Positions 19,705 to 41,835 of a stretch of 64,000 nt of DNA are shown here, piece by piece. The notes under the pieces were generated by a model. The model was not told the origin of the DNA and ran no database searches. It saw only the letters and a list, made by a program, of their open reading frames with translations. The position numbers were made by a program, and so were the translations under genes. How positions within the stretch are numbered: position 1 is the first letter of the stretch; every line of letters starts with the position of its first letter. The DNA comes from a virus (lineage: Duplodnaviria > Heunggongvirae > Uroviricota > Caudoviricetes): IMG/VR virus record IMGVR_UViG_3300035494_000066, one strand, 5' to 3'.

Positions 19705-19732
19705 TTGACTGTTTTTAAAAAGGATGTACAAT
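19705..19732 (+). promoter_or_regulatory. Possible sigma70 promoter TTGACT-16-TACAAT
   Basis: -35 at 19705-19710 and -10 at 19727-19732, inside the palindrome; upstream of the modification cluster. Confidence 0.4.
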
Positions 19733-19748
19733 ATTGTACATCCTTTTT
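19717..19748. terminator. 32-bp perfect palindrome, probable intrinsic terminator
   Basis: aaaaaggatgtacaat|attgtacatccttttt followed by a T run, just after the structural genes. Confidence 0.7.
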
Positions 19749-19772: not shown

Positions 19773-20075
19773 GTGTCAGAGATTATAAAAATGCGAATAA
19801 ATCGCGAAGCTACAAAAAAAGCAATGCGCGAGCATTATTTGTCGCGTCTAACTGTAGCATACAACGGAGGGTTATTTGTACTAAAACCTGAGCTGTTTGC
19901 GATGTTGCAACTGTTTAGTGATGAGAGCAGTGTTGTATTAGTTGATTCATTTGACAATCCTATACTCATCAGTGACTTGGGTGATTTTACTAAAAAATGT
20001 AAACAGCGATATACAGAAGTGTCGAACAAGTGGCATGCAGATTACGAGCAATCAAAACGTGACAGAAAGATCTAA
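19773..20075 (+). CDS. Hypothetical protein
   Basis: ORF 19734-20075; GTG at 19773 follows GGAGG (ATG 19791 is an alternative start). Confidence 0.6.
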   Translation: MSEIIKMRINREATKKAMREHYLSRLTVAYNGGLFVLKPELFAMLQLFSDESSVVLVDSFDNPILISDLGDFTKKCKQRYTEVSNKWHADYEQSKRDRKI

Positions 20076-20862
20076 AGGCTGTTTAATTTTTGCATACAAC
20101 TCCAGTGACGTCGATTACGTTAAGTTAGCAACAATTAACGCCAAGCTAATTAAAAAACACTTAAACTTACCAACATCTATTATTACGGATCAATTAATCG
20201 ATTCTAATGTATTTGACCATCAGATTATTGTTAGCAACAATAGTATTAACACACGGTCATTTAAAACCGAAACAGGCAACACAAAAACTATCAACTGGAA
20301 AAACATCGGTCGTGACCAAGCATTTAACTTAACGCCGTACGATATAACATTGTTGATTGATGCAGATTACATTGTTAACTCTGATTCGCTGTTAGGTTTA
20401 GTTGACATTGATGCTCCGATTGTTTCGTTTAAGTCTGCACACGATGTCATGGGAGCAAACCGCCTAGCAGCAGATCGACTTGTGTCGTTTAACAGTATCG
20501 AAATGTACTGGGCAACTGTTGTACGGTTTGACAAATCGGAACTTGCTAAGTCAGTGTTCGATACGATGACTCATATTAAAGACAATTGGGACTATGCCAG
20601 AACTGTTTACAACTTCCCAGCTGGGCCGTATCGTAACGATTTTAGCTTTTCAGTTGGGATGCATGCAGTTTCGGGATTATCCGAGTCTCGGAGCACAATT
20701 ATACCATGGAGCTTACCTACGCTGTCATCGGACTGTTACATAACTAGTTGCATACCAGGTACAATTGTAGCCACAGACGGTACTACAGCCGTAAAAGTAA
20801 TCGGTGACTTGCATATTATGAACAAGTGGTTAAATATTGATCTGTTAGAGGGGCTATTATGA
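20059..20862 (+). CDS. Glycosyltransferase-like protein (GT-A fold)
   Basis: LTPYDITLLIDADYIV with a DxD motif; start probably GTG 20059 rather than 19942. Confidence 0.6.
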   Translation: MTERSKGCLIFAYNSSDVDYVKLATINAKLIKKHLNLPTSIITDQLIDSNVFDHQIIVSNNSINTRSFKTETGNTKTINWKNIGRDQAFNLTPYDITLLIDADYIVNSDSLLGLVDIDAPIVSFKSAHDVMGANRLAADRLVSFNSIEMYWATVVRFDKSELAKSVFDTMTHIKDNWDYARTVYNFPAGPYRNDFSFSVGMHAVSGLSESRSTIIPWSLPTLSSDCYITSCIPGTIVATDGTTAVKVIGDLHIMNKWLNIDLLEGLL

Positions 20863-21734
20863 TACGCTGTAACGAGTTTAGCGAACAACAAGGCTTCTTA
20901 ACTGTTGTGCAGAATTCCGAAACGTGCGATTACTTACATATGGCTTATGTGCAAGCACTGAGCATCAAAGCAACCCAACGCACAACTAAATCGTATGCGG
21001 TACTGCTAGACAAGCCTACATACGATCAGCTGCGAGACGAGCATTTTGACGTGTTTGACTATGTGATTTTACTCGACGAAGATGCAGCTGAGCTCGACAA
21101 GTGGAAACTTGCTAACGAGTGGAAAGTGTGGCAATACACTCCGTTTAAGGAAACGATAAAGTTAGAATCGGATCTAATAGTACCAGCATCAATCGACCAC
21201 TGGTGGTCTATTTTACGACAGCATGATGTAGTAGTTACTACTAATGTTGTTGACTTTAGGGGCCAAGTCTCGGACAGCACCGCATACCGACGAACAGTGG
21301 TTGAAAATCACTTAGTGAACGCATACAATGGGGTATCATACTTCCGGTATAGTGCAGCAAGTAAATCGTTCTTCGAAACAGTTCGGTATGTGTTTGAAAA
21401 CTGGGAAGTAGTAAAAGCACAGCTAGCGTTATGTAACGATACACAACCTACAACTGATGTAGCATACAGTATTGCAGCGTTGTTTGCAGGTGAAGAATCA
21501 ACTACGCTCCCAACAAATACAGTGCCGTCGATGGTGCATATGAAACCGGCAATTAATAAATTCCCTGAGACGTACAAATGGCACGAGTGCTTACCGTATA
21601 CGATCGATAGTCGCGGCTTGATAGTGGGTGGCTATTTGCAAACACTACCGTTCCATTACTACGAAAAGCAGTTTGATCTGCAGAGAGTACACGACTACTA
21701 CAAAGAAGAGGTACTTCGTGCACGAGTTCAGTAA
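20859..21734 (+). CDS. Glycosyltransferase-like paralogue
   Basis: YTPFKETIKLESDLIV aligns with the upstream paralogue, with DxD degenerate to ESD; ATGA overlap. Confidence 0.55.
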   Translation: MIRCNEFSEQQGFLTVVQNSETCDYLHMAYVQALSIKATQRTTKSYAVLLDKPTYDQLRDEHFDVFDYVILLDEDAAELDKWKLANEWKVWQYTPFKETIKLESDLIVPASIDHWWSILRQHDVVVTTNVVDFRGQVSDSTAYRRTVVENHLVNAYNGVSYFRYSAASKSFFETVRYVFENWEVVKAQLALCNDTQPTTDVAYSIAALFAGEESTTLPTNTVPSMVHMKPAINKFPETYKWHECLPYTIDSRGLIVGGYLQTLPFHYYEKQFDLQRVHDYYKEEVLRARVQ

Positions 21735-21996
21735 AGCATTACAAGAGTTTATTCCGTCTACAGTAGAACAGCAAAGATACTTTATAGTATACGACCCAGA
21801 CACAAACAACCCGCTAGATTTTAGTTTAACTAAAACTGAACACTCGATCGAGATTAGTTACGACGAATACAACACTCTTAGGTTAGAGTATATTCGCGCA
21901 ATAGTTGACGGTAACATCGAAATGATAGACATTGATGCTGAGACTAGGTATATTCATCCGTTAGCAAACAAAGAGGTAAAATGGTATAATGAGTAA
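21718..21996 (+). CDS. Hypothetical protein
   Basis: In-frame GTG at 21718 after GAGG; fills the gap between coupled genes. Confidence 0.55.
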   Translation: MHEFSKALQEFIPSTVEQQRYFIVYDPDTNNPLDFSLTKTEHSIEISYDEYNTLRLEYIRAIVDGNIEMIDIDAETRYIHPLANKEVKWYNE

Positions 21997-22912
21997 CATT
22001 GAAATAGTTGATATTGCAGATTTAGACTGCGTATATTTGAGTTACGACGAGCCTTTAAAAGAAGAGTTCTGGGCTAAAATACAAAATATGGTACCATGGG
22101 CAGTTCGGGTTGATGGTGTTAAAGGTTCGGATGCAGCACATAAAGCCGCTGCTGATGCTAGTTCAACTGATCGCTTTATCTTAATCGACGGCGATAACAT
22201 GCCTGATCCGAGATTCTTCGACGAGCAGTTAGTATTAACCGATCTTAATAAAGATTGCGTGTTCCGGTGGCGAGCAGTAAATGACATCAATGGGCTAATG
22301 TATGGCAACGGCGGCATGAGTTGCTGGACGAAAGATTTTGTATATAACATGAAGACGCATGAAAACAGCAATGGGTCTGCAGAAACTGCTGTGGAGTTTT
22401 GCTTTGACCCTAAGTATATCGCAATGCATAATGTGTACAGTACAACACACCCCAACAGTAGTGCCTTTCATGCATGGCGCGCCGGATTCCGCGAAGGGGT
22501 TAAGATGTGCTTGGACCGCGGGAGCAAAATACCAATTGCTGATTTTAAAGAACGCGCAAACAAACAAAACCTAACAAACTTGCTAACTTGGCACAATGTA
22601 GGACGTGACGCGCAGTTCGGTGAGTATGCAATGTTCGGAGCCCGTTTAGGCACAAAATTAACAATGTTAACAGATTGGGACTACACCGAAGTTCAAGACT
22701 TTGACAAGCTTGCCGAACTTTGGGATAGTTTAGATATCCAAGATGTTTCTGCAGAAACAGTTGCCTTAGGTGACGAGTTGCGCACTAAGCTATCGCTGGA
22801 TATCGTTGAGTTAGATGCACGTCAGAGTTCGTTTGTTAAGCATTTAACTTATGCAACTCATCGCCAAAAAAATGTCATGCTCACCGAACAAGATTTTAAT
22901 AGTAGGAAGTAA
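21989..22912 (+). CDS. Glycosyltransferase-like protein (GT-A fold)
   Basis: DCVYLSYDE...AHKAAADASSTDRFILIDGDN (GT2-like, DGD motif); homologous to the C-terminal part of 34555-36522. Confidence 0.6.
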   Translation: MSNIEIVDIADLDCVYLSYDEPLKEEFWAKIQNMVPWAVRVDGVKGSDAAHKAAADASSTDRFILIDGDNMPDPRFFDEQLVLTDLNKDCVFRWRAVNDINGLMYGNGGMSCWTKDFVYNMKTHENSNGSAETAVEFCFDPKYIAMHNVYSTTHPNSSAFHAWRAGFREGVKMCLDRGSKIPIADFKERANKQNLTNLLTWHNVGRDAQFGEYAMFGARLGTKLTMLTDWDYTEVQDFDKLAELWDSLDIQDVSAETVALGDELRTKLSLDIVELDARQSSFVKHLTYATHRQKNVMLTEQDFNSRK

Positions 22913-24298
22913 ATGAGCGATTACTCAAATGCAGCAGATAATGCTAGGAAACAATTACAAACTGTCAGTGATACCTTTTGTCTTGCTAAATGGAAGCAAG
23001 TGAGCTTGCACTTACCGACTGGTTTTAACAACAGCTGTTACCACCCTCCGCTACATAAGATTCCTATCACCGAAATCGAAGCAGATCCTAGTGCATTGCA
23101 CAATACTTCGTTTAAAAAATTACGTCGAAAAGAAATGCTCGACGGTGTGCGTTGCGAAGAGTGCAAGTATTGCTGGGATATCGAAGACACTGGTAATATG
23201 TCAGATCGGCATTATCGATCTGGTGAGCCATGGGCAATGGAATCATTTGACCAAGTTGTGTCTGCAGACTGGGATGCTAATGTTAATCCTAGCTATGTAG
23301 AAGTGAATTTCAGTCACGGGTGCAACCTCGCGTGTAGCTACTGCAGTCCGCAATTCAGCACCACGTGGAAAAAAGAAATAGATCAGTACGGGGCATATCC
23401 TACTACAGTTCCGCACAATGCGCCCGAGTACTTTAACGGAGACAGACGTAACATACCAGTCCGCGAATATAATCCGTATGTTGATGCTTTTTGGAAATGG
23501 TGGCCCGAACTATATCCTGAGCTTAAACACTTTAGGATGACAGGCGGTGAGCCATTAATGGACAAAAACACGTATCGGGTGTTTGACTGGATTCTAGATA
23601 ACCCGAAGCCGGATTTACATTTGAATGTAACTAGTAACTTCAGCGTAGAACCTCAGCTCTTTGAGAAATACATCAGCTATGCTAAGCAGCTATGCAGCAT
23701 CGACGATATAAAACTAGAACACTTTATGCAGTTTGTTAGTATAGATTCGTGGGGATCTCAAGCCGAGTATATACGGGGCGGCTTAGACTTTGATCGACTA
23801 AAGAATAATGTGGAGCGCTTTCTTGACGAAGTCCCGTACCGCAGTAGCATCACGTTTATTGTTACTATGAATAACCTTAATGTGTTTGGATTGCCAAAAT
23901 TACTCGAGTGGATATACGAGTTGCGCGGCAAGTATAGTAAGACTTATCAGAGAATATGGATAGATTTCCCGCTGCTGAAGTTTCCGGCGTGGCAATCACT
24001 CGATTACATGCCAGACTCGGTTGCATGGTATTTGCAAAATACAATCGATACAGTAGTTAAACCTCGTCTCGAACAAGGAGATGAAGGGCATTTCCAGTTC
24101 TTTAAGGATTTCGAACTTGCTAAGCTACAACGAGATGTTGACTGGATGAAGTCTTCTGTGTTATCATTAAATGAAGTATCTCAGCGCAAACGTGATTTCT
24201 ATAAGTTCTTTAGCGAGTACGACAAACGCCGCGGCTATAACTTTGAAACAATGTTTCCTGAGCTGCAAACTTTTTGGGAGGATTGTAAGAAAAGTTGA
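22913..24298 (+). CDS. Radical SAM enzyme 1 with N-terminal SPASM/twitch-like domain
   Basis: CNLACSYC, TGGEPL; N-terminal FCLAKW...SCYH...CKYCW. Confidence 0.85.
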   Translation: MSDYSNAADNARKQLQTVSDTFCLAKWKQVSLHLPTGFNNSCYHPPLHKIPITEIEADPSALHNTSFKKLRRKEMLDGVRCEECKYCWDIEDTGNMSDRHYRSGEPWAMESFDQVVSADWDANVNPSYVEVNFSHGCNLACSYCSPQFSTTWKKEIDQYGAYPTTVPHNAPEYFNGDRRNIPVREYNPYVDAFWKWWPELYPELKHFRMTGGEPLMDKNTYRVFDWILDNPKPDLHLNVTSNFSVEPQLFEKYISYAKQLCSIDDIKLEHFMQFVSIDSWGSQAEYIRGGLDFDRLKNNVERFLDEVPYRSSITFIVTMNNLNVFGLPKLLEWIYELRGKYSKTYQRIWIDFPLLKFPAWQSLDYMPDSVAWYLQNTIDTVVKPRLEQGDEGHFQFFKDFELAKLQRDVDWMKSSVLSLNEVSQRKRDFYKFFSEYDKRRGYNFETMFPELQTFWEDCKKS

Positions 24299-25335
24299 AA
24301 AACATTCACAACTGGCCTTTGTGGCACTGGCATATAGAAGTAAGTAGTAAGTGCACACTTAAATGTCCATTATGTCCTCGTGTTGAATTAAAAGATAGTC
24401 TAGTCCAAACCGAGCTGTCGTTGGATTTTTTTACAGATAACTTTACCAACGAAGTGCTAGATAACGTACACCGTATTTCATTCTGCGGCGACGATGGCGA
24501 CCCGATATATGCTACTGATTTCCTAGATATCATAGCATACTTAAAGTTAGTTAAACCTGAGCTCTCGATACAAATTGTCACAAACGGTAGTTATAAAAAG
24601 CCAGACTGGTGGGCTAAGTTAGGACGCACACTCAATCATCATGATGAGATTCACTGGAGTATCGACGGGTACTCTCATGAATCGAACGAAATATATCGAG
24701 TAAATTCAAACTTTGAAAGTATATTAACAGGCATTAAGTCTTGCAATACCACTGCCCTTAAAACTTGGGCAGCTATCTATTTTAAGTTTAACGAATCTAA
24801 GATTGATCAAATTGTTAATATAGCAGCTAGCTCTGGCTTAGATCGAGTACAGTTAACTAAAAGTACTAAATTCGGGTATTTTTATCCGAATTTACAGAAC
24901 AGCTTAAACCAACAATTAGAACCAACTGATAAGAACTTAATTAGTACAACCGGTAGGTTTGAGCGAAACATAATTCATTTAACTCCGCGGTCAACATCGT
25001 TTAATGTAAATAACACACATGCAATATTAAAGTATCACGATGTTCTGAAATCTCGCTCTGGTGAGAATATAATCCCGTTATGTTTAATTGGTACTAAAGG
25101 TCTGTATATTAACAGTCAAGGGTATTTTGTGCCGTGCTGTTGGGTCGCAAATAGATACGAACCTAATTATCAAGATTTTTTAAAATCTGAATTTAACATT
25201 AAAGAACGTGGGATAGAAGCAGTTATAAACTCACCGCTTTGGGCAGAATTTTTTAATTCGATGTCAACAAATAAACAGTGTAACGAAAAATGTCACCGGC
25301 GGAATATTTCAGAGCGATACATAACTGATTGGTAA
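24295..25335 (+). CDS. Radical SAM enzyme 2 with C-terminal SPASM/twitch domain
   Basis: CTLKCPLC, GDDGDP, VTNGS, SIDG; C-terminal C...PCCW...CNEKC; TTG start. Confidence 0.85.
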   Translation: MKNIHNWPLWHWHIEVSSKCTLKCPLCPRVELKDSLVQTELSLDFFTDNFTNEVLDNVHRISFCGDDGDPIYATDFLDIIAYLKLVKPELSIQIVTNGSYKKPDWWAKLGRTLNHHDEIHWSIDGYSHESNEIYRVNSNFESILTGIKSCNTTALKTWAAIYFKFNESKIDQIVNIAASSGLDRVQLTKSTKFGYFYPNLQNSLNQQLEPTDKNLISTTGRFERNIIHLTPRSTSFNVNNTHAILKYHDVLKSRSGENIIPLCLIGTKGLYINSQGYFVPCCWVANRYEPNYQDFLKSEFNIKERGIEAVINSPLWAEFFNSMSTNKQCNEKCHRRNISERYITDW

Positions 25336-25339
25336 TTCA

Positions 25340-26671
25340 ATGAATAAAGATTTACACTATATACCAGATGATCAATTTTTAAACTATATTAAAGAAGAAA
25401 CAGGTAGCAATTCGTTTTGCTTAGCAAAATGGTATAACGCTACTATTTGGCTCGGGTCGGGCATGACAACCAGCTGTCACCACCCGCTTCCGCATTTTGT
25501 CCCGCCAGAGGACGCAATAAAAAACCCGAAAGCGATTCATAACACTGCACAGAAAAAGCAAGAACGTCTCATGATGCAGCGCGGCGAACGTCCGAGCGGC
25601 TGCGACTATTGCTGGAAGATCGAAGACATGCCGGGCGATAATGTCAGTGATCGTGTGTATAAAACAAAGATTTATAGCAAAGACGATTTGATTATTGCAA
25701 AAGATACTAATAGCCAACTCGATGTGGATCTCAGGACTCTAGAGATTGCGTTCGATCGGACATGCAACTTGGCTTGCAGCTATTGCAATCCGGCATTTAG
25801 TACATCTTGGGTCAAAGACATAAAAACAAACGGACCGTATACTAACTTAATCAGCGACGGTCGAAATCATTTTACGCACACACACGATTCTGCACAGAGG
25901 TATGCACGTGACGAAACTAACCCGTATGTAGAAGCGTTTTTTAAGTGGTGGGACAGTGACTTAAAAGATACTCTCAGCGAGTTGCGAATTACAGGAGGAG
26001 AACCACTTGCTAGTGACCATATATGGCGATTGTTAGACAACTGGGATAGCAATACACCGACACGACTAGCAATTAATAGCAACTTATGTGTTAAAGATAG
26101 TTTAATTAATAAATTGTTAGATGCTGCAAAAAACATTAGCAACCTCGAAGTGTATACTAGTTGCGAAGCACTAGCAGCTAGATCCGAGTATATCCGAGAC
26201 GGTTTTGTGTGGGAAGTCTGGTATTCAAATCTTATTAAGCTTCTCGAATCACCTGACGTTAAAGCTGTGCATATAATGTCAACTGTTAATGCACTGTGTA
26301 TTGTAGATTTACCTGATTTTATTGAATTTGTTTGTCTGCTTAAGCAAAAGTACAGTAAACTAAATTTCACACTTAATATTTTGCGATTCCCTAGTTTTCA
26401 GAGTGTAAACGTGCTGCCTGAAAAAATTCGACTTGAGTATGCTATTCGACTTGATGCTGTAGTTGAATCACTAGCAACAGCGCTTTCGGGCATGGAGAAG
26501 AACCAGATACAGAGGCTGTCTTCGTATTTGCGAAATGAATCTGGTTCCGGGCTTGAGTTAGGGAAAGAGCTACACGACTTTAAGAAGTTCTATGATCAAT
26601 ATGACATCCGGCGAAACAAAGATTTTAGTAAAACCTTTGTGCAGTTAGCAGAGTGGTATTCTACCTTATGA
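25340..26671 (+). CDS. Radical SAM enzyme 3 with N-terminal SPASM/twitch-like domain
   Basis: CNLACSYC, TGGEPL; FCLAKW...SCHH...CDYCW; close paralogue of enzyme 1. Confidence 0.85.
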   Translation: MNKDLHYIPDDQFLNYIKEETGSNSFCLAKWYNATIWLGSGMTTSCHHPLPHFVPPEDAIKNPKAIHNTAQKKQERLMMQRGERPSGCDYCWKIEDMPGDNVSDRVYKTKIYSKDDLIIAKDTNSQLDVDLRTLEIAFDRTCNLACSYCNPAFSTSWVKDIKTNGPYTNLISDGRNHFTHTHDSAQRYARDETNPYVEAFFKWWDSDLKDTLSELRITGGEPLASDHIWRLLDNWDSNTPTRLAINSNLCVKDSLINKLLDAAKNISNLEVYTSCEALAARSEYIRDGFVWEVWYSNLIKLLESPDVKAVHIMSTVNALCIVDLPDFIEFVCLLKQKYSKLNFTLNILRFPSFQSVNVLPEKIRLEYAIRLDAVVESLATALSGMEKNQIQRLSSYLRNESGSGLELGKELHDFKKFYDQYDIRRNKDFSKTFVQLAEWYSTL

Positions 26672-27981
26672 CTAAGAAAGCAGATCAGATGAAAAAATAC
26701 TATAGAACTTACGATTATAGTAGTAGGAAGCCGGTGTTTGTAGAGCCGGATGATTTAACCGAACAGCAACGCCATCGGTTAATCGAAAGTGATGTTTTTT
26801 GCATAATCCCATGGATTCATATCCACGGGTATCCTACAGGCGAAGCATACCCGTGTTGCTTATCTGATATGGACAAACCCATTGGAAATATGCGAGAGCA
26901 CACGCTAGAAGATATATGGAATGATGCTCCGCTCCGGAAAATGCGGACAAATATGCTAACTGAGAAACCATGCGGCGAGTGCACGAAGTGCTACGAACAA
27001 GAAGAAGCAGGGTTTTTTAGTATGCGCAACAGCAGTAACAAGCACTTTGGGCATCATATCGATATAGTCGACACTACCCACGACAACGGTAAGCTGCCGT
27101 CATTTGAACTAAAGTACTGGGACATTCGATTTAACAATTTGTGTAACTTCAGATGTCGAACGTGCGGCGATATCTTTAGTAGCAACTGGGGCAAAGAAAA
27201 GCAATCAATCGGTTGGCTAGATAAAAACATACCTATCATCCAATACGCAGGCCGGTCGAAATTAGACATCTGGGAGCAGATGGAAAAGCATCTTCCGTAT
27301 GTTGAGCAAATTTATTTTGCCGGTGGCGAACCGTTAATTATGGAAGAACATTATCGTGTGCTCAAATGGTTAGTTGCAAACGAACGATTTGATGTTAAGT
27401 TAATATACAATACAAACTTCAGTGAAACTAAGTATAAAGACTTAGACGTTTTTGAAATCTGGAAGCTGTTCGATAGTGTTAGTGTAGGTGCTAGCTTAGA
27501 CGCATCTGGAGATCGCGGCGAATACATGAGAAAAGGGCAAGACTGGACCCAGACTGAAAAAAACAGAGAGCGTATGCTGTCAGTTTGCCCTGATGTTGAT
27601 TTTTATGTAAGCCCGACACTCAGTATAATGAACAGTCTGCACTTGCCCGATTTCCACCGCGATTGGATTTCAAAAGGCTTTTTAAAGCCGAGCGACCTAA
27701 ATGTTAACATCTTGCAAAGCCCGGATTATTACAGAATTGACGTATTGCCTAAAACTGTTAAAGCAGAAGTTGAACAAAAGTACTTAGAGCATATAGAGTA
27801 TATAAAGCCGTTTGACAATCTAACCCGAGCAACTTCCGGTTTCTCTAGTGCTATAAACTTTATGACAAGTTCGGACAAGTCAGAATTATTACCGGCGTTT
27901 CATAAGAATATTGAAAAGTTAGACCAAATCCGGTCAGAGGACTTCCTGACAGTATTTCCAGAATTCAAAGGCAAGCTATGA
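26668..27981 (+). CDS. Radical SAM enzyme 4 with N-terminal SPASM/twitch-like domain
   Basis: CNFRCRTC, AGGEPL, YNTN; FCIIPW...PCC...IGN...CTKC; ATG 26668 overlaps the previous stop (ATGA). Confidence 0.85.
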   Translation: MTKKADQMKKYYRTYDYSSRKPVFVEPDDLTEQQRHRLIESDVFCIIPWIHIHGYPTGEAYPCCLSDMDKPIGNMREHTLEDIWNDAPLRKMRTNMLTEKPCGECTKCYEQEEAGFFSMRNSSNKHFGHHIDIVDTTHDNGKLPSFELKYWDIRFNNLCNFRCRTCGDIFSSNWGKEKQSIGWLDKNIPIIQYAGRSKLDIWEQMEKHLPYVEQIYFAGGEPLIMEEHYRVLKWLVANERFDVKLIYNTNFSETKYKDLDVFEIWKLFDSVSVGASLDASGDRGEYMRKGQDWTQTEKNRERMLSVCPDVDFYVSPTLSIMNSLHLPDFHRDWISKGFLKPSDLNVNILQSPDYYRIDVLPKTVKAEVEQKYLEHIEYIKPFDNLTRATSGFSSAINFMTSSDKSELLPAFHKNIEKLDQIRSEDFLTVFPEFKGKL

Positions 27982-29198: not shown

Positions 29199-30541
29199 AA
29201 AAACCGATATCAAAACCTGAAGAAATGTGCTTAGCGCTGTGGGTGCATACTTACTTAAGTCCGCAAACTGAGCGTAGACTATGTTGTGCTAGCAGAGAAC
29301 CTGCGCAAAGTTTTAAGCAGTACATCGATACAGACGAAGGGTCTGGGACATATAGTCCTGCAAGCTTAGACGAATTTTGGAATAGCGAATACGTCCGAAA
29401 TATTCGTCTGGAAATGATGGCAGGAAAGCTGCCATCAGCATGCGAAGTGTGCGATAAAAAGCTTCTTAACACAGATGTATACCGAGACTATTTTTGGCAC
29501 TTGTTTAAACACAAGTACGACGAAGTGTGGGAGAGCACTGACGAAACTGGGTATACTTCGATGAAACCGGTTAGCTGGGATTACCGATTCTCTAATTTGT
29601 GCAATTTCAAGTGTCGTCAGTGCGGCGATATGCTAAGCTCAAGCTGGGAGGCTGAAAGCCGCAAGCATAACAGAATAAACTGGAAAAACCCGCAGAATTC
29701 GTGGTTAGAAAGCGATACTCGCGCAGCAATTAAGCAGTTCCAAGAAACCCAAGTTGAACAAGAGTTTTCTGCAGCAGTTGAAGAACATCGCGTTGAAGAA
29801 GTTTATTGGGTCGGTGGCGAACCTTTAATGTACGACCAGCACTGGCAGTACATGCAGCGTATAGTTGAATTAGGAGACGGCCCGCGAGTTTACGCCAGAT
29901 ATAATACAAACTTGAGCAAGATAGAATACCGCGGTGTTCATTTGTTTCGGGACATTCTGAGTAACATTCGCGACTGGCAAGTGTGTGCAAGCTTAGACGG
30001 TACAGGGAAGATCGGTGAATACATTAGGACTGGATTAAACTACAACGAGTGGCTTTTGAACTTTAAAGAAGGTATGCAGTACCAATCAGTACCGAATCAA
30101 ATGCGAATCGACTATACGATTACATTACCTGGTTTACTAGATGCGGTAAATATCTTTAACTTAAGCAAAGAATTAGATGTTCAGTTGTTAACAAAAGTTA
30201 CATTTACCTTTTCAGATGACGTTGCGATGAGTCCTTTACTCCTTCCGCGCGATGTATTATCTGCAGTAATTGACGACATTTTGCTACAGTGTAAAAACCC
30301 AACTTGGAAGCAACAGAGCTTAATTGACACGTTAGTATCTCTTAAAACGCGGCCGACCACTGAAGAGATGTTTCCGGATACGTTTAAACAGGGCCGCGAA
30401 CGCGCTAAGCTAAAAATACAACAACTCGAAACAATACGCGGCGACAAATTCACGTTTGCTGATATAATATCAGATAATCGATTAATTAAGGAGTGGTGGC
30501 ATGACATTGCCTCAAATAAAAGTTACATTGCGAAATGTTAA
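29195..30541 (+). CDS. Radical SAM enzyme 6 with N-terminal SPASM/twitch-like domain
   Basis: CNFKCRQC, VGGEPL; CLALW...LCC...CEVC. Confidence 0.85.
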   Translation: MKKPISKPEEMCLALWVHTYLSPQTERRLCCASREPAQSFKQYIDTDEGSGTYSPASLDEFWNSEYVRNIRLEMMAGKLPSACEVCDKKLLNTDVYRDYFWHLFKHKYDEVWESTDETGYTSMKPVSWDYRFSNLCNFKCRQCGDMLSSSWEAESRKHNRINWKNPQNSWLESDTRAAIKQFQETQVEQEFSAAVEEHRVEEVYWVGGEPLMYDQHWQYMQRIVELGDGPRVYARYNTNLSKIEYRGVHLFRDILSNIRDWQVCASLDGTGKIGEYIRTGLNYNEWLLNFKEGMQYQSVPNQMRIDYTITLPGLLDAVNIFNLSKELDVQLLTKVTFTFSDDVAMSPLLLPRDVLSAVIDDILLQCKNPTWKQQSLIDTLVSLKTRPTTEEMFPDTFKQGRERAKLKIQQLETIRGDKFTFADIISDNRLIKEWWHDIASNKSYIAKC

Positions 30542-31694
30542 AACATCGCAACTTCTAGATTATTATATTACTCCGGAAGATAACCAGCTAGCAGCAGATT
30601 GGATTAATGCCCTTAAAGGGCTATTACAATCTAAGAATCCGATTGAAAAGAATTACTGCTTTCTCGGCTTTCCTACTAGTACGCGCACAGTAGAATATTT
30701 GTGCAACGAACTCAACCATTATGTTCATGTGGTTAATATGTTTAACGAAACAAACACATGGCAAGATAATGGGCTAGAACCGTATATTATCGACGAGTAC
30801 TTTTGCGAAGACACTGTGCGGTTTAATGACACTTACCCAATTGGCCCAGGCGAATACAAGGACGGGATTAACTTAGGGCTGCGGATCAAGCATAGTACGT
30901 TGAATCGGTTACATTTGCACTTCGAGAGGTTGCAAGGAACAGTTTGGCGCATGAGCGAATACTATAAGCTAGCTGACGCTGAGACAAAGTTTGCAATCCG
31001 TCAACTTAACAATTTGTGTCATGAGCTCGAGGGCAAAATACTGTGCGATCGAAAATTTGCATACAATAAAGAATGGGTCAGACCTAGTCAGATTACTACA
31101 TTCTTACACGCGCCGCGCTACGAGCTAACAGACGAACACAGAGTAGGATTTATCGAAAACGGTTACGATCGCGAATTTGGAGCAGTGTACATGCACTGGA
31201 CTCAAATTGGTAAAACTCTTTTTGAAGTGTGGCGAGACGAAGGAGCCCCGGATTTAATCGTTGGCAACGATCCTACGGATATTTCAGCAAACGACGGAAC
31301 AACGTCAGAGGCAATTAATTCTCTGAAGTACTACAGTGGCGAGTTTGATGTCGAGTGGGCTAAGAGTGTTTGTTATAATGACCCAGACCAATTGTGGCAC
31401 AAAGAATACCTAGACGAGTATTACAGTTGGTTAACCAAACACGGCGTTGATATCAATGAACCTAAATTAGGGTTAGGTTACCTTAAGATCGGATCTGTTG
31501 ATCTTATTAAAAGTTTCGGAACTTCCGACATGTTTGAAATTTGGAATATGCTAGGCGATTACTTAGACATATACAAAATCAAAGTCGATGGTATATCAAG
31601 TGTATACGAATACAGTTGGGCTGACGCAGATCATGTACAAAATCAAATTGAGTTCTTAAGGCCGGGATATGACTATTCTAGTAACAAACGGTGA
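30501..31694 (+). CDS. Hypothetical protein
   Basis: 397-aa ORF overlapping both neighbours; LHLHFE and LCHELE His/Glu motifs may bind metal. Confidence 0.7.
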   Translation: MTLPQIKVTLRNVKTSQLLDYYITPEDNQLAADWINALKGLLQSKNPIEKNYCFLGFPTSTRTVEYLCNELNHYVHVVNMFNETNTWQDNGLEPYIIDEYFCEDTVRFNDTYPIGPGEYKDGINLGLRIKHSTLNRLHLHFERLQGTVWRMSEYYKLADAETKFAIRQLNNLCHELEGKILCDRKFAYNKEWVRPSQITTFLHAPRYELTDEHRVGFIENGYDREFGAVYMHWTQIGKTLFEVWRDEGAPDLIVGNDPTDISANDGTTSEAINSLKYYSGEFDVEWAKSVCYNDPDQLWHKEYLDEYYSWLTKHGVDINEPKLGLGYLKIGSVDLIKSFGTSDMFEIWNMLGDYLDIYKIKVDGISSVYEYSWADADHVQNQIEFLRPGYDYSSNKR

Positions 31695-32463
31695 CAGTTT
31701 TACATACGGTGCTGAGCTTAAAGACGATTTCCCGTCTCATAGTAGGTTTGCATGGCCTTCACTGGTTGCACACAAGATACACGCCGAGTTAATAAACGAT
31801 GCTATAAGCTCTTCGAGCAATAGTAGTATCACCCGGCGGACTATTAACAGAGTGACTAGTTTACTACGTAAAAATCCACCGTCGGACCTGCTAGTTGTTG
31901 TTATGTGGTCGTTTCCGCAGCGATACGAAGTTAGGCTCAATTATGATTCAAGGACTCCGCAAACTCCGTGGTATGATGTATCACCATGGGATTCGTATAC
32001 ATCAATTGATGAAGTTTTGGGAAATTTTCTAAACAAAACGTCCAATCGAGCTATCATTGATTCGCACAAAGACCATATTAAGTTCTTAAAAAGATCCGGA
32101 TTAGGTAGCTACATTAAAGAATTTAATATAAACATCGGATCGGAGTTTTGGGAGATTTATACATCCCTTAAAGAGATGCATTACTTACAAAGTTTTCTAG
32201 AAGCAAACAGTGTTGAATATGTTTTTACAGCATGTAGTTCGGATTTTTTAACAACAAGTGTCTTTAATTCTAGCGACGAGACTATCGAATCGTTAAAGTC
32301 AATGATTAAATTCGATCGGTGGTGTTTATTCGACAACCTCGGATTCGTAGAGTGGGCTAAGCACAATAATTTTCCGTTTGGAACTACTCATCCATTGGAA
32401 GATGCGCACATTGCTGCAGCTGATATACTTTGCAATTTTTTACAGGAGAACTATATTGATTAA
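31669..32463 (+). CDS. SGNH/GDSL-like hydrolase or acyltransferase
   Basis: N-terminal NGDSFTYG, SSN block, C-terminal THPLEDAH. Confidence 0.6.
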   Translation: MTILVTNGDSFTYGAELKDDFPSHSRFAWPSLVAHKIHAELINDAISSSSNSSITRRTINRVTSLLRKNPPSDLLVVVMWSFPQRYEVRLNYDSRTPQTPWYDVSPWDSYTSIDEVLGNFLNKTSNRAIIDSHKDHIKFLKRSGLGSYIKEFNINIGSEFWEIYTSLKEMHYLQSFLEANSVEYVFTACSSDFLTTSVFNSSDETIESLKSMIKFDRWCLFDNLGFVEWAKHNNFPFGTTHPLEDAHIAAADILCNFLQENYID

Positions 32464-32572
32464 GTCAATCGTTGAGTGGGTTACTGCTATTAAAGACCGA
32501 ATAAAGCTAGAAATACAATATCGAAAGCGTCTTAAAGAGATGCAAAAGAAGGACCCGCACATATACAAATGA
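32456..32572 (+). CDS. Small basic protein (38 aa)
   Basis: AGGAG RBS then in-frame TTG at 32456; stop overlaps the carbamoyltransferase ATG. Confidence 0.5.
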   Translation: MIKSIVEWVTAIKDRIKLEIQYRKRLKEMQKKDPHIYK

Positions 32573-34047
32573 ACATTCTAGGCATTAGTTGTGGCTATCA
32601 TGATGCTGCAATGACATTAATTAACCAACACGGCGATATACTCTTCGCTAGTCATAGCGAGCGGTTTAGCGGAGTTAAGCACGACCCAATGTTAGACTTA
32701 GGCTTAATCGACTCTGTATTAAAGTACGGATTAATAGATACAATCGCTTATTACGAAATTCCGTGGAAGCGCAAGATCCGAGAGCTGTACTCGGGCCAAA
32801 AGTCAACTACTCCATGGACGTTGCGGCAGCAACTTAAAGACAACGGTCTAATAGCATCATCTGCTAATACTATTTCGTTTCCGCACCATCTTAGTCACGC
32901 AGCAGCTGGGTTTCAGACAAGCCCTTTTTCTAGCGCCGCTTGTTTGGTTATAGATGCAGTAGGCGAGTGGGACACCGTGTCTATATTTGATGCGCATTAC
33001 AACAATAACGGCGAAGCGTGTTACAAAAAGGTATTTTCTAAAAAATACCCAAACAGTATAGGACTGTTTTACAGCGCAATTACCGAGTACATTGGCTTAA
33101 ACCCGATGAACGAAGAGTACATCACAATGGGGATGGCCGCATGGGGCGCGCCTATATACAAGCAGAAGATGCTAGATGAGATTTTCAATGGCACTAATGT
33201 AAAGCAGAATTTGCATATAGGCTTTCCTGAGAATTACTTTGGAACTGCTGACGATGTTGACATTGCTGCAAGCGCCCAGGCAATTGTCGAAGACGTAATT
33301 TACGATTACGCTAAGTTAGCACTAGAACTAACAGGGTCTGAGAACTTGGTGTATATGGGCGGTGTGGCGTTAAATTGTGTAGCGAACAGCAAGTTAACAT
33401 CTTTAACTGACTATATATGGATCATGCCAAATCCGGGCGACGCAGGATCTAGCTTAGGCGCTGCAGCACTAGCGTATAAGAAGAAACTTAATTGGAATAG
33501 CCCGTTTTTAGGGCACGACATCAAAGGAGACTACCCAGTCGATGACTTGATTAATGAGTTGTTATCGCGTAAAATAGTAGGTGTAGCTGCTGGCCCGGCA
33601 GAATTCGGGCCCCGAGCATTAGGTAATCGGAGTTTGCTAGCGGACCCGCGCGGCAGCGAGATAAAAGCTACAGTAAACAGCATTAAGCGTCGGCAGCAAT
33701 TCCGGCCGTTCGCTCCGGTTATACTCGAAGAACATGCCGCTGACTACTTTGACATGCCAGTTAACTGCAGTCCATATATGCAGTTTGTGGCAACATGCAA
33801 AGACTCGAAAAGTTTTCCAGCTATTTGTCATGTTGACGGGACTTCGCGAGTGCAAACTGTGCCGCGTGATTGCAGGTCGGGAATTAGGCAGTTACTCGAA
33901 GAGTGGTACAAAGTAACCGGTTGTCCGATGCTATTAAACACTAGTTTAAACATCCGAGGAAAGCCAATGGTTAATACTATTGCTGATGCAGCAGAATGGG
34001 AACGTACCTACGATATTAAAGTTTGCACGCCAAAAGGAAATCGATGA
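32569..34047 (+). CDS. O-carbamoyltransferase (NodU/CmcH/TobZ family)
   Basis: HDAA, ERFS, HHLSHAA, GGVALNCVAN, GDAG, EFGPRALGNRS, FRPFAP, VDGTSRVQTV, LLNTSLN. Confidence 0.92.
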   Translation: MNILGISCGYHDAAMTLINQHGDILFASHSERFSGVKHDPMLDLGLIDSVLKYGLIDTIAYYEIPWKRKIRELYSGQKSTTPWTLRQQLKDNGLIASSANTISFPHHLSHAAAGFQTSPFSSAACLVIDAVGEWDTVSIFDAHYNNNGEACYKKVFSKKYPNSIGLFYSAITEYIGLNPMNEEYITMGMAAWGAPIYKQKMLDEIFNGTNVKQNLHIGFPENYFGTADDVDIAASAQAIVEDVIYDYAKLALELTGSENLVYMGGVALNCVANSKLTSLTDYIWIMPNPGDAGSSLGAAALAYKKKLNWNSPFLGHDIKGDYPVDDLINELLSRKIVGVAAGPAEFGPRALGNRSLLADPRGSEIKATVNSIKRRQQFRPFAPVILEEHAADYFDMPVNCSPYMQFVATCKDSKSFPAICHVDGTSRVQTVPRDCRSGIRQLLEEWYKVTGCPMLLNTSLNIRGKPMVNTIADAAEWERTYDIKVCTPKGNR

Positions 34048-34562
34048 AATTAAGTAATAAGATGTTACGCGCTCATATGAGCGCAGCGGAGGTATACGCA
34101 CAATGCAGTACTGCGCGGCGAGCTCAAGTCGGGTGTATTTTAGTTAAAGATGACCGCATTATTAGTATAGGTTACAACGGCATGCCGTCGGGTGACACAA
34201 ATGTATGCGAAGACATCGTTTACGCACCCCCGCAGATCACCGAATGCAACAGTGAATGGCCATTAATGGACACAAGCGGAAAGCCATTTCAGTTAGTAAC
34301 TAAGCAAGAAGTATTGCATGCTGAATCTAATGCAGTTGCAAAGCTAGCAAAAAGCCACGAATCGGGCAATGGTGCAGTCGCGTTTGTGACACTTTCACCG
34401 TGTATCGATTGTGCAAAGTTGTTATACCAGGCAGGGATTGTTGCAGTGTTTTATAAGAACCGGTATAAAACAAATCACGGCATTGAGCTGCTACAAAAGT
34501 ACGGCATTAATGTGTATCAAATTGACGAATACTTGTTAACAAACGACAGATTTTATGTTTGA
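34044..34562 (+). CDS. dCMP deaminase
   Basis: VGCILVK...GYNGMP, HAESNA and SPCIDC zinc motifs; ATG 34044 overlaps the previous stop. Confidence 0.9.
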   Translation: MKLSNKMLRAHMSAAEVYAQCSTARRAQVGCILVKDDRIISIGYNGMPSGDTNVCEDIVYAPPQITECNSEWPLMDTSGKPFQLVTKQEVLHAESNAVAKLAKSHESGNGAVAFVTLSPCIDCAKLLYQAGIVAVFYKNRYKTNHGIELLQKYGINVYQIDEYLLTNDRFYV

Positions 34563-36522
34563 CGTATTTTATTTTGACACCAAACCGGACTTGAATTTCA
34601 AGTCAACATATGCAAAAACTATCAACGAAGCGCAGTCGCTTGCAAAAACTGAGCACTTCTGGTTCCTGTCGGGTCATAATAATTATAGCGAGTTTGACTT
34701 TAATTTTATCCCAGCACCATGGGAACAACACCACACATTTATTTGGCCTTCGTCCTGGCAGGAGTCTGGTAGAGTTATGCTAGTCCGAACAGATGCTGTT
34801 GGTCCAGATCATTATATGGACAACTGTGTTAGATCGCTAGCGACTGTTGATGTTTTTTTCATCGACACACATAATAAAAAATCCGAGGCTAGTTTAGAGT
34901 CTATCAAGACAGATGGCAATCTTATTAAGATGCGCAGCACTGGTGATACTGTTGCTGCGATAACACGAGCATGTAACCGGGCTACGACTGACTTTATTTG
35001 GGTTGTTTCGTCTGCATACGATTATTCGAAATTTGATTTTAGTTGGCACCCTGCTACATGGCAGGCTAATAACTTGCATGTATTTTCAAGCAACAAACAA
35101 CAATGGGCAAATGTATTTTACGTCAATGTGAGCGAGTTCTTGCGACTAGCACAATGGTATACTGAAATTCATAATTTCCCGTCGTTGAACTTTGTTAATG
35201 ATGTAACTGTTTCGTTATTCGACAATAACCACGAGGTGTGGTATGTGGATTTCGGAAACAACAAAGAACTTGAATCAACAGTTGATTACAATATTACTCG
35301 ATTTAATAACTCGTATCTCGAGACAATTAAACGAGTGTGTAATAAGACATCAGCTGAATATATATGGGTTACTAGTAGTACATGCGACTACTCGGGCTTT
35401 GAATTTGACTGGGAGCCAGAGCCATGGCAAAAGAACATGATTCACGTTTTTCGATCAAACGAGCAACCGTTTGGCGATACATTCTTTGTTCCAGTGCAAG
35501 AATTCTTAAGACAGTCTAGCAACATTGAGTTACTTGAGTGGTTCAAGGATGTTAACTACGTAGACTACTCAGTGCCGCGGCACCCGTTCCCAGTGGTGCA
35601 TTACACAGGGTCGCTAACTGACGCGATTAACAATGCCCCGTTAACGGGAATATATACCGACTTTGTCCATTCTGATGCTACTATAGAAGGCACACTACCT
35701 TCTCCGGTGCTGTGGAGGAAAGAGGATCGAGTATTGCTGTCTGTAAACTCGGGAATTGTGGCTAGAATTCCGCGTGATGCAGCACAACATATTAACACTC
35801 AGGTGTATGATTTTAGTAACATTGCATCTGTGCAGTCTAGTTCGATCACAGTCCCGCCATTGGACGTTATTTTCATCTCCAACGGCGAAGAATGTGCCGA
35901 GCGCAACTACGATGCTCTTTGTCGTGTTTGTTCAAGAGCGAAGCGTTCTGACGGGGTTAACGGTCGTTTAGCAGCGTACCAAGCAGCTGCTCGCCTTAGC
36001 ACTACAGAATGGTTTTTTGCAGTGTTTGCTAAATGCAAGGTTAATCCCGAATTCGACTTTAGCTGGCAGCCTGATCGCCTGCAGGCAAACAAGCATTATA
36101 TTTTTAATGCGCACAACCCCATTAATGGGTTAACATATGGACACATGGCTATTATAGCGTACCATCGCGATACTTTGCTAAGCTTAACCGATTCAGATTG
36201 GTACAGTGATGTGACCTTAAGTTCGTTGCACGAAACTGTTCAGCTGCTTAGTTGCGAAGCTGATTACGCAGAAAGTCCGTATGCAGTGTGGAAAACTGCG
36301 TTCAGGGAAGCACTGAAACTGGCTGCAGATACTGACGTCGAAAGTCAGTATAGACTAAACCAGTGGCTTACAGTCGGAAACGGCGAGTACGGAAAGTATA
36401 GTATTATGGGTGCAGAAGATGCTGTTGCGTACTATTGCGCAAATAGTGATAATCTAGATGCGTTACAAGCACCAGCAGAGTGGAAATGGTGTGAGGCGTA
36501 TTGGAAAAATAAGGGCTTATAA
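34555..36522 (+). CDS. Multi-repeat glycosyltransferase-like protein
   Basis: Four internal repeats ending in F(D/E)F-x-(W/F)-x-P; last unit homologous to 21989-22912 but lacks DxD. Confidence 0.55.
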   Translation: MFDVFYFDTKPDLNFKSTYAKTINEAQSLAKTEHFWFLSGHNNYSEFDFNFIPAPWEQHHTFIWPSSWQESGRVMLVRTDAVGPDHYMDNCVRSLATVDVFFIDTHNKKSEASLESIKTDGNLIKMRSTGDTVAAITRACNRATTDFIWVVSSAYDYSKFDFSWHPATWQANNLHVFSSNKQQWANVFYVNVSEFLRLAQWYTEIHNFPSLNFVNDVTVSLFDNNHEVWYVDFGNNKELESTVDYNITRFNNSYLETIKRVCNKTSAEYIWVTSSTCDYSGFEFDWEPEPWQKNMIHVFRSNEQPFGDTFFVPVQEFLRQSSNIELLEWFKDVNYVDYSVPRHPFPVVHYTGSLTDAINNAPLTGIYTDFVHSDATIEGTLPSPVLWRKEDRVLLSVNSGIVARIPRDAAQHINTQVYDFSNIASVQSSSITVPPLDVIFISNGEECAERNYDALCRVCSRAKRSDGVNGRLAAYQAAARLSTTEWFFAVFAKCKVNPEFDFSWQPDRLQANKHYIFNAHNPINGLTYGHMAIIAYHRDTLLSLTDSDWYSDVTLSSLHETVQLLSCEADYAESPYAVWKTAFREALKLAADTDVESQYRLNQWLTVGNGEYGKYSIMGAEDAVAYYCANSDNLDALQAPAEWKWCEAYWKNKGL

Positions 36523-36534
36523 GCCCTTATTTTT
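36505..36534. terminator. 30-bp perfect palindrome, bidirectional terminator at the strand switch
   Basis: aaaaataagggctta|taagcccttattttt between convergent stops at 36522 and 36527. Confidence 0.8.
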
Positions 36535-40345: not shown

Positions 40346-40654
40346 TTAATGCATGGTTAATTTAAACAGCATAGCCTCTTCGGGACTTTCGAATGCTACG
40401 TAATGGGAAGTCAAGGCCGCCCGGTAGATTTTGTTAGCGTACATAAAATATTTTAAATTAGCTCGATCGGCAGCACGGGACTGCTGACTTGGGTTTTTTA
40501 TTTTAATAAAATGCGGTGGGATGTGGTTTAGTATATCAAACAAAGCAGTGTTGATTGCGGATTCTACAGCATCTTCGCCGATCTGCTCCTGAAGATTTGA
40601 AAGGACTGCAGCTCTTTCAGCTGCAGTCATACTGAAGTGTTTGCTAATATTCAT
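40346..40654 (-). CDS. Hypothetical protein
   Basis: ORF following the vWA gene; start uncertain (ORF extends to 40735); C-terminal FESPEEAMLFKL. Confidence 0.5.
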   Translation of the reverse strand: MNISKHFSMTAAERAAVLSNLQEQIGEDAVESAINTALFDILNHIPPHFIKIKNPSQQSRAADRANLKYFMYANKIYRAALTSHYVAFESPEEAMLFKLTMH

Positions 40655-41801: not shown

Positions 41802-41835
41802 TGAAAGAAGCTCCCACTAGGATCAATATTAATTA

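Follow-up and report, generated by a model that had tools for sequence, protein, structure and literature searches.

We analyzed a 64,000-nucleotide stretch of viral DNA (IMG/VR virus record IMGVR_UViG_3300035494_000066; hereafter the window), and concentrate here on a block of about 17 genes at positions 19773–36522. The block encodes six radical S-adenosylmethionine (SAM) enzymes, confirmed by Pfam, NCBIfam and motif scans, four glycosyltransferase-like proteins of GT-A type, a carbamoyltransferase of the NodU/TobZ type and an SGNH-like protein of family DUF6071. We consider it probable that these genes form a cytoplasmic, self-contained pathway for making and editing a glycan. The window corresponds to bases 200413–264412 on the minus strand of one virus contig of 302.5 kb, and the source is an uncultured T4-like jumbo phage. 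In a listing of open reading frames (ORFs) the block's genes all lie on the plus strand without a break, with neighbors mostly overlapping by 4–40 nucleotides or separated by a few bases, and the run is bounded by two perfect palindromes, as an earlier reading of the same DNA (made from the sequence alone, without database searches; hereafter the sequence-only reading) had described. No membrane segments were predicted in any protein of the block.

Five of the radical SAM enzymes (R1–R5) are, by profile score, members of the NCBIfam family NF033640 (N_Twi_rSAM), each exceeding its curated cut-off of 170 bits, while the sixth (SP) is a non-member at 39.9 bits. All six contain the CxxxCxxC motif and match Pfam Radical_SAM and/or SPASM, in line with the count of six in the sequence-only reading. 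They are listed here with their positions in the window; gene-order counts, here and below, refer to 80 related viral loci that were fetched for comparison.

22913–24298, plus strand: R1, N-terminal-twitch radical SAM enzyme; NF033640 score 333.7 bits; CNLACSYC at residue 137; orthogroup support 100%
24295–25335, plus strand: SP, conventional radical SAM enzyme with a C-terminal SPASM domain (Pfam Radical_SAM and SPASM); accessory, present in only 5 of the 80 related loci
25340–26671, plus strand: R2, N-terminal-twitch radical SAM enzyme; 300.1 bits; orthogroup includes gp202 of Ralstonia phage RsoM2USA (48% identical)
26653–27981, plus strand: R3, N-terminal-twitch radical SAM enzyme; 399.8 bits
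27978–29198, plus strand: R4, N-terminal-twitch radical SAM enzyme; 326.1 bits; bacterial copies from the O-polysaccharide locus described below branch nearest to the R4 group
29195–30541, plus strand: R5, N-terminal-twitch radical SAM enzyme; 273.6 bits; orthogroup support 100%

R1–R5 share an N-terminal auxiliary-cluster domain with four cysteines (C50, C68, C110 and C113) that are invariant across the paralogues, followed by a core that carries CxxxCxxC in all five and an invariant GGEP motif (G224, G225, E226 and P227). Pfam SPASM matches fall at residues 12–113 of R3, R4 and R5, which places the twitch-type domain at the N-terminus. Positions 17–92 of a radical SAM profile align to the twitch region of BtrN (E 0.001), giving a little support to the analogy with BtrN and NeoN that had been drawn from the sequence; the R3 twitch region, searched on its own as one sequence against the PDB, gave no match. 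The nearest solved relatives of the R paralogues, all of them weak matches, are viperin, BtrN (twitch region), MoaA and cytosylglucuronate decarboxylase (BlsE). These enzymes act on small nucleotide or sugar substrates rather than on peptides, a kinship that would favor a glycan as the substrate.

In a tree of the paralogues (FastTree, with SH-like support values only and long-branch caveats for outliers), R1–R5 form five old orthogroups distributed over two superclades, which argues that the radical SAM copies are not redundant. R3 and R4 occur as natural fusions of 815–852 residues in about 50 protein clusters of a metagenome collection (P0274–P0322), which suggests that the two work together, and members of the family fused to tetratricopeptide (TPR) repeats, 790–1106 residues in length, are present in the same collection (P0293, P0334–P0342). 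NF033640 itself exists only as a catalog entry, whereas the phage block contains five fixed orthogroups of the family in one operon. A literature search on its accession or name found no paper.

The genome as a whole carries at least 12 radical SAM genes, comprising eight NF033640-like places together with SP, a QueE gene, a B12 type and others. Likewise, 12 radical SAM genes have been described in a T4-like genome of marine origin, where they were discussed only as clients of Fe–S cluster assembly (Nishimura et al. 2017, PMC5332604); that paper describes no operon, family or function for them. The sequence-only reading was correct in naming no function for tandem radical SAM paralogues in a virus, with the qualifiers that the family is catalogued as NF033640 and that radical-SAM-rich T4-like phages are on record. 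The B12-binding radical SAM gene of the window (53156–54694, plus strand) stands alone among minus-strand genes, and its best match is to PhpK-type P-methyltransferases, below the cut-off.

Four proteins of the block resemble glycosyltransferases, two of them GT8-like (U1 and U2) and two belonging to a family found only in phages (U3 and U5).

20035–20862, plus strand: U1, GT8-like (glycogenin/LgtC-type) GT-A protein; the longest ORF begins at 19942, and the conserved part begins near the ATG at 20035
20859–21734, plus strand: U2, GT8-like glycosyltransferase-like protein; the N-terminal 105 positions of its profile match glycogenin-1 and -2 (E 1.6e-6 to 2e-4)
21989–22912, plus strand: U3, the most conserved non-radical-SAM protein of the block; N-terminal GT-A-type domain with a DxD motif, then a helical domain
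34555–36522, plus strand: U5, virus-only module (FDF-W-P-W-H motif) repeated in the N-terminal part, with a GT-A domain resembling that of U3 at the C-terminus

None of the four matches Pfam at E 0.01 or better (GT8 included), and alignments of the related loci were built to compare them further. U1 and U2 are homologous (hhalign probability 99.7%). In U1 the D140-A-D142 motif is invariant and matches to glycogenin are weak (E 0.1), while U2 has E-A-D at the corresponding place and only D105 is invariant. An AlphaFold2 model of U3 (pLDDT 89.4) has D67-G-D69, with D67 and D69 invariant, and its top Foldseek match is the PBCV-1 capsid glycosyltransferase A64R (E 2.6e-4, probability 1.0, 12% identity), with RmlT, WrtF and BcsA also matched. 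A second aligner gave VIA Z scores of 7–8.5 over approximately 135–145 residues, with glycosyltransferases tied with nucleotidyltransferases such as IspD; a profile search of U3 against the PDB found no match. Assignment of the U3 model to the GT-A fold class is therefore supported at the level of the predicted structure. Residues 431–621 of U5 are homologous to U3 (BLASTP E 3e-12), and the neighbors of its N-terminal part in the ESM Atlas are all viral proteins without a family. The four glycosyltransferase-like proteins of the sequence-only reading are accordingly all accounted for, U1 and U5 through their homology to U2 and U3.

We searched for NF033640 in about 560 bacterial genomes, consisting of 401 genomes of one phylum and 80 relatives of each of two true carriers. 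Three of the 401 genomes scored above the cut-off, one of which is a bin rich in phage-like contigs, and the family was absent from the 80 relatives of each true carrier; it is thus rare and patchy in bacteria. In the first carrier (genome G102) the genes lie on a chromosomal contig with a GC content of 54%, on which the genes run in the order dnaE, accA, rmlC, rmlD, wzm, a fusion of wzt to a radical SAM gene, three more tandem radical SAM genes, a TylF-like O-methyltransferase gene, a methyltransferase gene and a WbsX glycosyltransferase gene. The Wzt fusion (contig 19, L098:8579–11143, minus strand) is a single frame of 854 residues without a stop, with a Walker A motif at 81, the carbohydrate-binding C-domain of Wzt at 283–413, a twitch domain at 432–500 and CNLKCRMC at 557. 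It would be difficult to account for the fusion of a radical SAM enzyme to the ATPase with which a finished O-polysaccharide is recognized and exported if that polysaccharide, or its terminal residue, were not what the enzyme acts on. To judge from gene context, this locus and the fusion, both new here, appear to tie NF033640 to glycans, and they lead to the concrete hypothesis of enzymes whose substrate is a polysaccharide or its cap. The bacterial copies are only approximately 21–26% identical to the phage copies.

In the second carrier (G173) the family member lies beside a GT2 gene and a dehydratase-type short-chain dehydrogenase/reductase (SDR) gene, next to prophage recombination genes. 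Other bacterial homologues include proteins of Paragemmobacter and Zetaproteobacteria. A scan of genome contigs with R3 found only a 2.5-kb contig in a metagenome-assembled genome labelled uncultured Polynucleobacter (G001, 2.1 Mb); N_Twi radical SAM genes of phage type are present on at least six contigs of this assembly, and one of them encodes a protein 53% identical to R3 (L086). These may be phage contigs binned with their host's genome, which would hint at the host, or the bin may be contaminated.

Among viruses the family is abundant. When viral contigs were scanned with the paralogue alignment, at least 590 matches were confirmed, and more than 7400 relatives of R3 are present among the metagenome protein clusters that were scored. 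The order T2-T3-S0-U1-U2-U3-R1-R2-R3-R4-R5-U4-(DUF6071)-carbamoyltransferase-U5 (T2 and T3 being the fibre-like genes that precede the block) is kept in most of the 80 loci, with the carbamoyltransferase present in 46 of them. SP, the dCMP deaminase, and the aminotransferase and SDR that converge on the block are occasional members. Relatives carry variable inserts at the same joints, including a B12 radical SAM gene, other radical SAM genes, extra DUF6071/SGNH-like copies, a P-loop kinase-like gene, a UDP-glucose dehydrogenase gene and an adenylate-forming motif; such variable insertion of tailoring genes is typical of a glycan locus that is diversifying. The block is a costly one, and it is kept by thousands of large aquatic phages.

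A nucleotide search of a phage collection with the whole block found no match, and protein searches of that collection recovered only Vibrio phages K566 and K567, which have three to four members of the radical SAM family, Ralstonia phage RsoM2USA and one marine single-cell virus. The cultured jumbo phage RsoM2USA carries a reduced, three-gene mini-version of the block (gp203–gp198, L002:11126–16951), in which a DUF6071-like gene (gp203), the R2 orthologue (gp202), two genes of about 280 codons, a carbamoyltransferase gene (gp199, product 45% identical) and a small ORF can be recognized. All of gp203–gp198 are annotated as hypothetical. Our literature search found no experimental study of the block, and RsoM2USA offers a usable experimental model for it.

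The remaining genes of the block are as follows.

19773–20075, plus strand: S0, soluble protein of about 100 residues without cysteine; tblastn places it likewise in 43 related loci, with E values as low as 4e-20
21628–21996, plus strand: small ORF between U2 and U3, doubtful
30501–31694, plus strand: U4, conserved soluble protein; cyclophilin-like beta-barrel with a helical insert (AlphaFold2 pLDDT 81)
31669–32463, plus strand: DUF6071 protein, SGNH-hydrolase-like (PF19547, 51.5 bits)
32456–32572, plus strand: micro-ORF of 38 codons; TTG start, AGGAG Shine–Dalgarno sequence, product ending ...KKDPHIYK; stop overlaps the carbamoyltransferase start
32569–34047, plus strand: O-carbamoyltransferase of the NodU/CmcH/TobZ type, with Kae1-like and YrdC-like domains
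34023–34562, plus strand: dCMP deaminase, accessory insertion (PF00383, E 1.1e-19)

The main genes of the block had been recognized from the sequence, but S0, the micro-ORF and the identity of 34023–34562 as a dCMP deaminase gene had been missed. The carbamoyltransferase has both expected Pfam domains, each above its cut-off (Carbam_trans_C, E 3.6e-52, 176.8 bits; Carbam_trans_N, E 2.8e-37, 129.4 bits), as the sequence-only reading would predict; its score of 163 bits against the NodU model, for which the cut-off is 1000, indicates that it is not NodU itself. The micro-ORF upstream of it travels with the carbamoyltransferase gene and not with the radical SAM genes. Its terminal motif, [KR][KR]DP[FH][IV]Y[KR] followed by a stop, is found in 50 loci (near-invariantly as ...RKRDPFIYK), and codon differences among its copies are 11320 synonymous versus 5866 non-synonymous.

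In the DUF6071 protein, G8, S10, N51 and H241 are invariant, so that the GDS, N and H blocks behind the 'SGNH' label can be aligned, but the Pfam family is DUF6071 and the PDB profile matches (GDSL lipase and acetyl-xylan esterase, E 0.4–0.8) are not significant. The protein is probably an esterase or an acyl-handling enzyme. A paralogue at 45268–45963 (minus strand) adjoins genes for a QueE-like radical SAM enzyme, a QueD-type 6-pyruvoyltetrahydropterin synthase (PTPS) and a phosphoribosyltransferase (46542–49360, minus strand); this second copy beside QueE/QueD-type genes indicates that the SGNH-like family is not confined to the glycan block.

U4 had no match in Foldseek, Pfam or a PDB profile search, and the ESM Atlas gave no lead. 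VIA aligned its model to cyclophilins with Z of about 9 over some 140 residues; this is a fold-level match only, and we did not adopt it as an indication of function. S0 is evenly conserved along its length. The small ORF between U2 and U3 has no sequence relative in the related loci, 26 of which have a different ORF family of about 117 residues in the same place.

The block is preceded by fibre-like genes and followed by two converging sugar-nucleotide genes, with the following features at its borders.

17293–18753, plus strand: T2, tail-fibre-like protein with a C-terminal autocleaving chaperone domain, outside the block (tail-fibre PHROGs, Pfam Peptidase_G2; 22% Ser+Thr)
18775–19689, plus strand: T3, Ser/Thr/Ala/Gly-rich protein (26% Ser+Thr), in the flank, always between T2 and the block
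19705–19732, plus strand: sigma-70-like promoter TTGACT-16-TACAAT, right behind T3 and heading the block
19717–19748, no strand assigned: perfect palindrome (16+16 nucleotides) with A5 and T8 flanks, 3' of T3, terminator-like, overlapping the −10 hexamer
36505–36534, no strand assigned: perfect palindrome (15+15 nucleotides) spanning both converging stop codons, with the appearance of a two-way terminator
36527–37606, minus strand: DegT/PseC/LegC-type NDP-4-keto-sugar aminotransferase, converging (PF01041, E 1.7e-77; best NCBIfam match PseC, below its cut-off)
37566–38558, minus strand: SDR of the NDP-sugar 4,6-dehydratase/epimerase type, converging (PF01370, PF16363; best NCBIfam matches LegB and dTDP-glucose 4,6-dehydratase, both below their cut-offs)

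Pfam bears out the converging epimerase and aminotransferase of the sequence-only reading, as an SDR of the dehydratase/epimerase type and a DegT protein, respectively. T2 lies 5' of the block in 39 of the 80 related loci and T3 keeps its position in 45, so that the co-occurrence of fibre genes with the cluster, which had been proposed as a check, is indeed observed. T3 matches no Pfam or PHROG family. Further upstream, and directly 5' of T1–T3, is a fibre-like ORF of 4216 residues (window 3911–16561, plus strand) with CBM5/12 and FG-GAP matches, which is itself preceded by an ORF of 1129 residues (500–3889).

A T4-type late motif, TATAAATA, at position 16579 heads genes T1–T3, and another copy is found at 462, ahead of the 1129-residue ORF. 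The T4 late promoter TATAAATA is absent from positions 16587–64000 of the window, and only 3 of 38 related loci have TATAAATA 5' of S0, so that the block does not have the character of a T4-type late operon. In the same 38 loci, a sigma-70-type promoter matching at 10 or more of 12 positions is present within 130 nucleotides 5' of S0 in 22 cases, of which five match perfectly; among random windows 3.75% reach that score and none has a perfect match. The left palindrome, a 'terminator' in the sequence-only reading, is perfect but overlaps this conserved promoter. These sequence patterns indicate that the block is its own transcription unit with its own conserved sigma-70-type promoter, probably one that is read by the unmodified host polymerase. 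A promoter of its own weakens the view of the block as the mere tail end of the fibre operon, and the link to fibre genes would fit self-glycosylation of the phage and modification of a receptor glycan on the host surface alike.

We envisage the pathway as follows. The converging dehydratase and aminotransferase would supply an amino-deoxy NDP-sugar. The four GT-A-type transferases (two GT8-like, two of the phage-only family) would build a short oligosaccharide on an acceptor. Next, each of the five N-terminal-twitch radical SAM enzymes, which are not redundant, would use its CxxxCxxC cluster to cleave SAM and would remove a hydrogen from one of the sugar carbons, with the fully cysteine-ligated auxiliary cluster serving as an electron sink or source and with R3 and R4 acting as a pair; the outcome could be oxidation, epimerization, deoxygenation or C–C/C-methyl chemistry. 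Finally, the SGNH-like protein and the carbamoyltransferase, the latter perhaps with the micro-protein as its partner, would remove or add acyl and carbamoyl groups. Each of these chemical steps, like the acceptor, is something we infer from the gene content, folds, motifs, conservation, O-polysaccharide link and promoter observed above.

Our leading candidate for the acceptor, which we offer tentatively, is a protein of the phage itself, for example one of the Ser/Thr-rich fibre proteins encoded next to the block; this would resemble capsid glycosylation in chloroviruses and mycobacteriophages. A host envelope glycan is an unlikely acceptor, DNA or a nucleotide a distinctly improbable one, and maturation of a peptide or protein more improbable again, with the remaining probability falling to acceptors of other kinds. 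The fullest version of the proposal, in which an oligosaccharide is placed on fibre or other virion proteins, its sugars are rewritten by the five radical SAM enzymes and it is capped with a carbamate, is doubtful as a whole. If correct, it would represent a new class of radical-edited protein glycan and would provide a first reaction for a radical SAM family whose members are found much more often in phages than in bacteria. Should the product prove to be a glycan of the virion or of the cell surface, it would matter for host recognition, phage decoys and defense evasion, and would involve new radical sugar chemistry. The glycan-tailoring pathway of the sequence-only reading gains from the GT-A-type proteins, the NDP-sugar genes and the O-polysaccharide locus with its Wzt fusion, but its designation of virion proteins as the most plausible target goes beyond these data: adjacency to fibre genes is conserved, but the block has its own sigma-70 promoter, mostly lacks the late motif, and would be placed no differently if it acted on the host surface.

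Several observations weigh against a glycan pathway, or against its service to the virion. We know of no product, substrate, acceptor or characterized reaction for any member of NF033640. The late promoter is mostly missing, and co-expression of the block with virion genes is accordingly not supported by the promoter sequences. The bacterial context comes from two of the approximately 560 genomes. Glycosyltransferase activity is suggested only by fold and motif, and the predicted fold, matched at a middling Z of 7–8.5, is also common to nucleotidyltransferases. The TPR-fused members and the kinship with SPASM/twitch enzymes leave a protein or peptide substrate possible for the radical SAM enzymes. 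Lastly, a dCMP deaminase gene lies inside the operon, and a carbamoyltransferase of the same superfamily acts on 5-hydroxymethylcytosine (5hmC) in DNA (PMC8670742).

Of the alternative acceptors, an envelope glycan of the host (O-antigen, capsule or an intermediate linked to undecaprenyl diphosphate) fares best, though we regard it as unlikely. Early in infection the phage would remodel the surface of the cell, relying on host machinery for export, and would benefit by blocking superinfection or by keeping its progeny off debris. The sole cellular context that we found, an ABC-transporter-type O-polysaccharide locus with a Wzt fusion, agrees with this, and pathways of that type employ soluble or peripheral enzymes at the cytoplasmic face. 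So does the early-type sigma-70 promoter at the head of the block. GT8 enzymes are common in the synthesis of the lipopolysaccharide core, and the O-antigen-modifying genes of temperate phages often adjoin tailspike genes, so the link to fibre genes fits as well. However, the block encodes no initiating phosphoglycosyl transferase, flippase, polymerase, ligase or membrane protein, and 17 kb is a large outlay for exclusion by a T4-like lytic phage.

We consider it improbable that the block instead hypermodifies phage DNA or nucleotides, placing a sugar and a carbamoyl group on a modified base and using the radical SAM enzymes to edit the appendage, in the manner of the clusters that hypermodify thymidine or cytosine. 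There are precedents in that a phage carbamoyltransferase modifies 5hmC and co-occurs with dCMP deaminase and thymidylate synthase homologues on modified contigs (PMC8670742), and in that GT-A-fold phage enzymes glycosylate DNA (bioRxiv 10.1101/2023.12.21.572611). In the present block the dCMP deaminase gene overlaps the carbamoyltransferase gene, the promoter is of an early type, and the phage carries a 7-deazaguanine system. Its only ThyA homologue, encoded outside the window at contig positions 139987–140913 (about 95 kb away), passes the thymidylate synthase model and is atypical, with W and A at E. coli positions 147 and 177, respectively, and with 55 C-terminal residues that do not align to solved thymidylate synthases. 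Canonical enzymes have H147 and N177, and dCMP-specific enzymes have D177. From these substitutions the homologue may have an altered pyrimidine-modifying activity. However, two related phages (L005 and L041) carry the same block beside a canonical H147/N177 thymidylate synthase, which argues against a hydroxymethyl-pyrimidine target in DNA. The dCMP deaminase is within the block in only 4–5 of the 80 loci, and together with dihydrofolate reductase (DHFR) and a thymidylate synthase homologue it makes up the ordinary dTMP set of T4. The block showed no D177-type hydroxymethylase, 5-HMUDK or TET-like gene, and the bacterial context of the radical SAM family is polysaccharide. We considered the dCMP deaminase, DHFR and ThyA homologue as a DNA-modification operon and rejected it as the principal explanation, since relatives have a canonical thymidylate synthase and the deaminase is rare.

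The remaining alternative, that the radical SAM enzymes are peptide or protein maturases that cross-link or epimerize residues (of a peptide made on the ribosome and modified after translation, RiPP, or of a virion protein) while the glycosyltransferases act separately, draws on the fact that SPASM/twitch enzymes are best known in that role (PMC11002830), on the TPR-fused members of the family and on the two conserved small genes in the block. It is very improbable, because S0 lacks both cysteine and a variable core, the micro-ORF is near-invariant and coupled to the carbamoyltransferase rather than to the radical SAM enzymes (neither has the leader and variable core of a RiPP precursor), the search for an RRE-like domain, a protease or an exporter found none, the closest relatives of solved structure act on small molecules, and the bacterial locus contains sugar enzymes only and no candidate peptide gene.

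A pathway that makes and edits a glycan can also be set beside several known systems, of which bacterial O-polysaccharide loci and viral machineries for glycosylation are the closest functioning analogues. Like the block, the G102 locus has tandem radical SAM genes of the same family, there among sugar-nucleotide, methyltransferase and glycosyltransferase genes, and its enzymes are likewise soluble; the phage block differs in having no transporter or rml genes and in adding the GT8-like and phage-only GT-A proteins, the carbamoyltransferase, the DUF6071 protein and U4. Virus-encoded glycosylation has been described for PBCV-1 (A64R and its partners) and for mycobacteriophage virions (Freeman et al. 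2023, as cited in PMC12619734). Those systems also use soluble, virus-encoded GT-A enzymes adjoining structural genes, and A64R is the best Foldseek match of U3, but they are not known to include radical SAM or carbamoyltransferase genes, and U3 resembles A64R at the fold level only.

Among enzymes of aminoglycoside biosynthesis, BtrN is a twitch radical SAM enzyme that acts on an amino-sugar-like ring, TobZ is an O-carbamoyltransferase that uses ATP and carbamoyl phosphate, and a DegT-type aminotransferase is common to these systems and the block. However, the twitch domain is N-terminal in the block enzymes and C-terminal in BtrN, the similarity is marginal and confined to the twitch domain, and the block has no 2-deoxystreptamine genes. 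The 5hmC carbamoyltransferase found by MetaGPA (PMC8670742) belongs to the same superfamily as ours, and is phage-borne with a dCMP deaminase neighbor. In the present phage, by contrast, no D177-type hydroxymethylase was found, and relatives bearing the block have a canonical thymidylate synthase.

Two further observations concern genes at the joints of the block in relatives and elsewhere in the window. One related locus (L022) has inserts at 2491–6186, 7558–8670 and 12449–13468 that encode a protein with a signal-peptide-like N-terminus, an adenylate-forming motif (TSGTTG) and SGNH-like proteins, and an unnamed family of about 370 residues inserted at such joints is represented by 127 ORFs in 56 loci. 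Beyond the converging sugar-nucleotide genes, at 40644–42971 of the window (minus strand), a DUF2201 metallopeptidase/VWA-like protein and an AAA (MoxR-like) ATPase form a pair.

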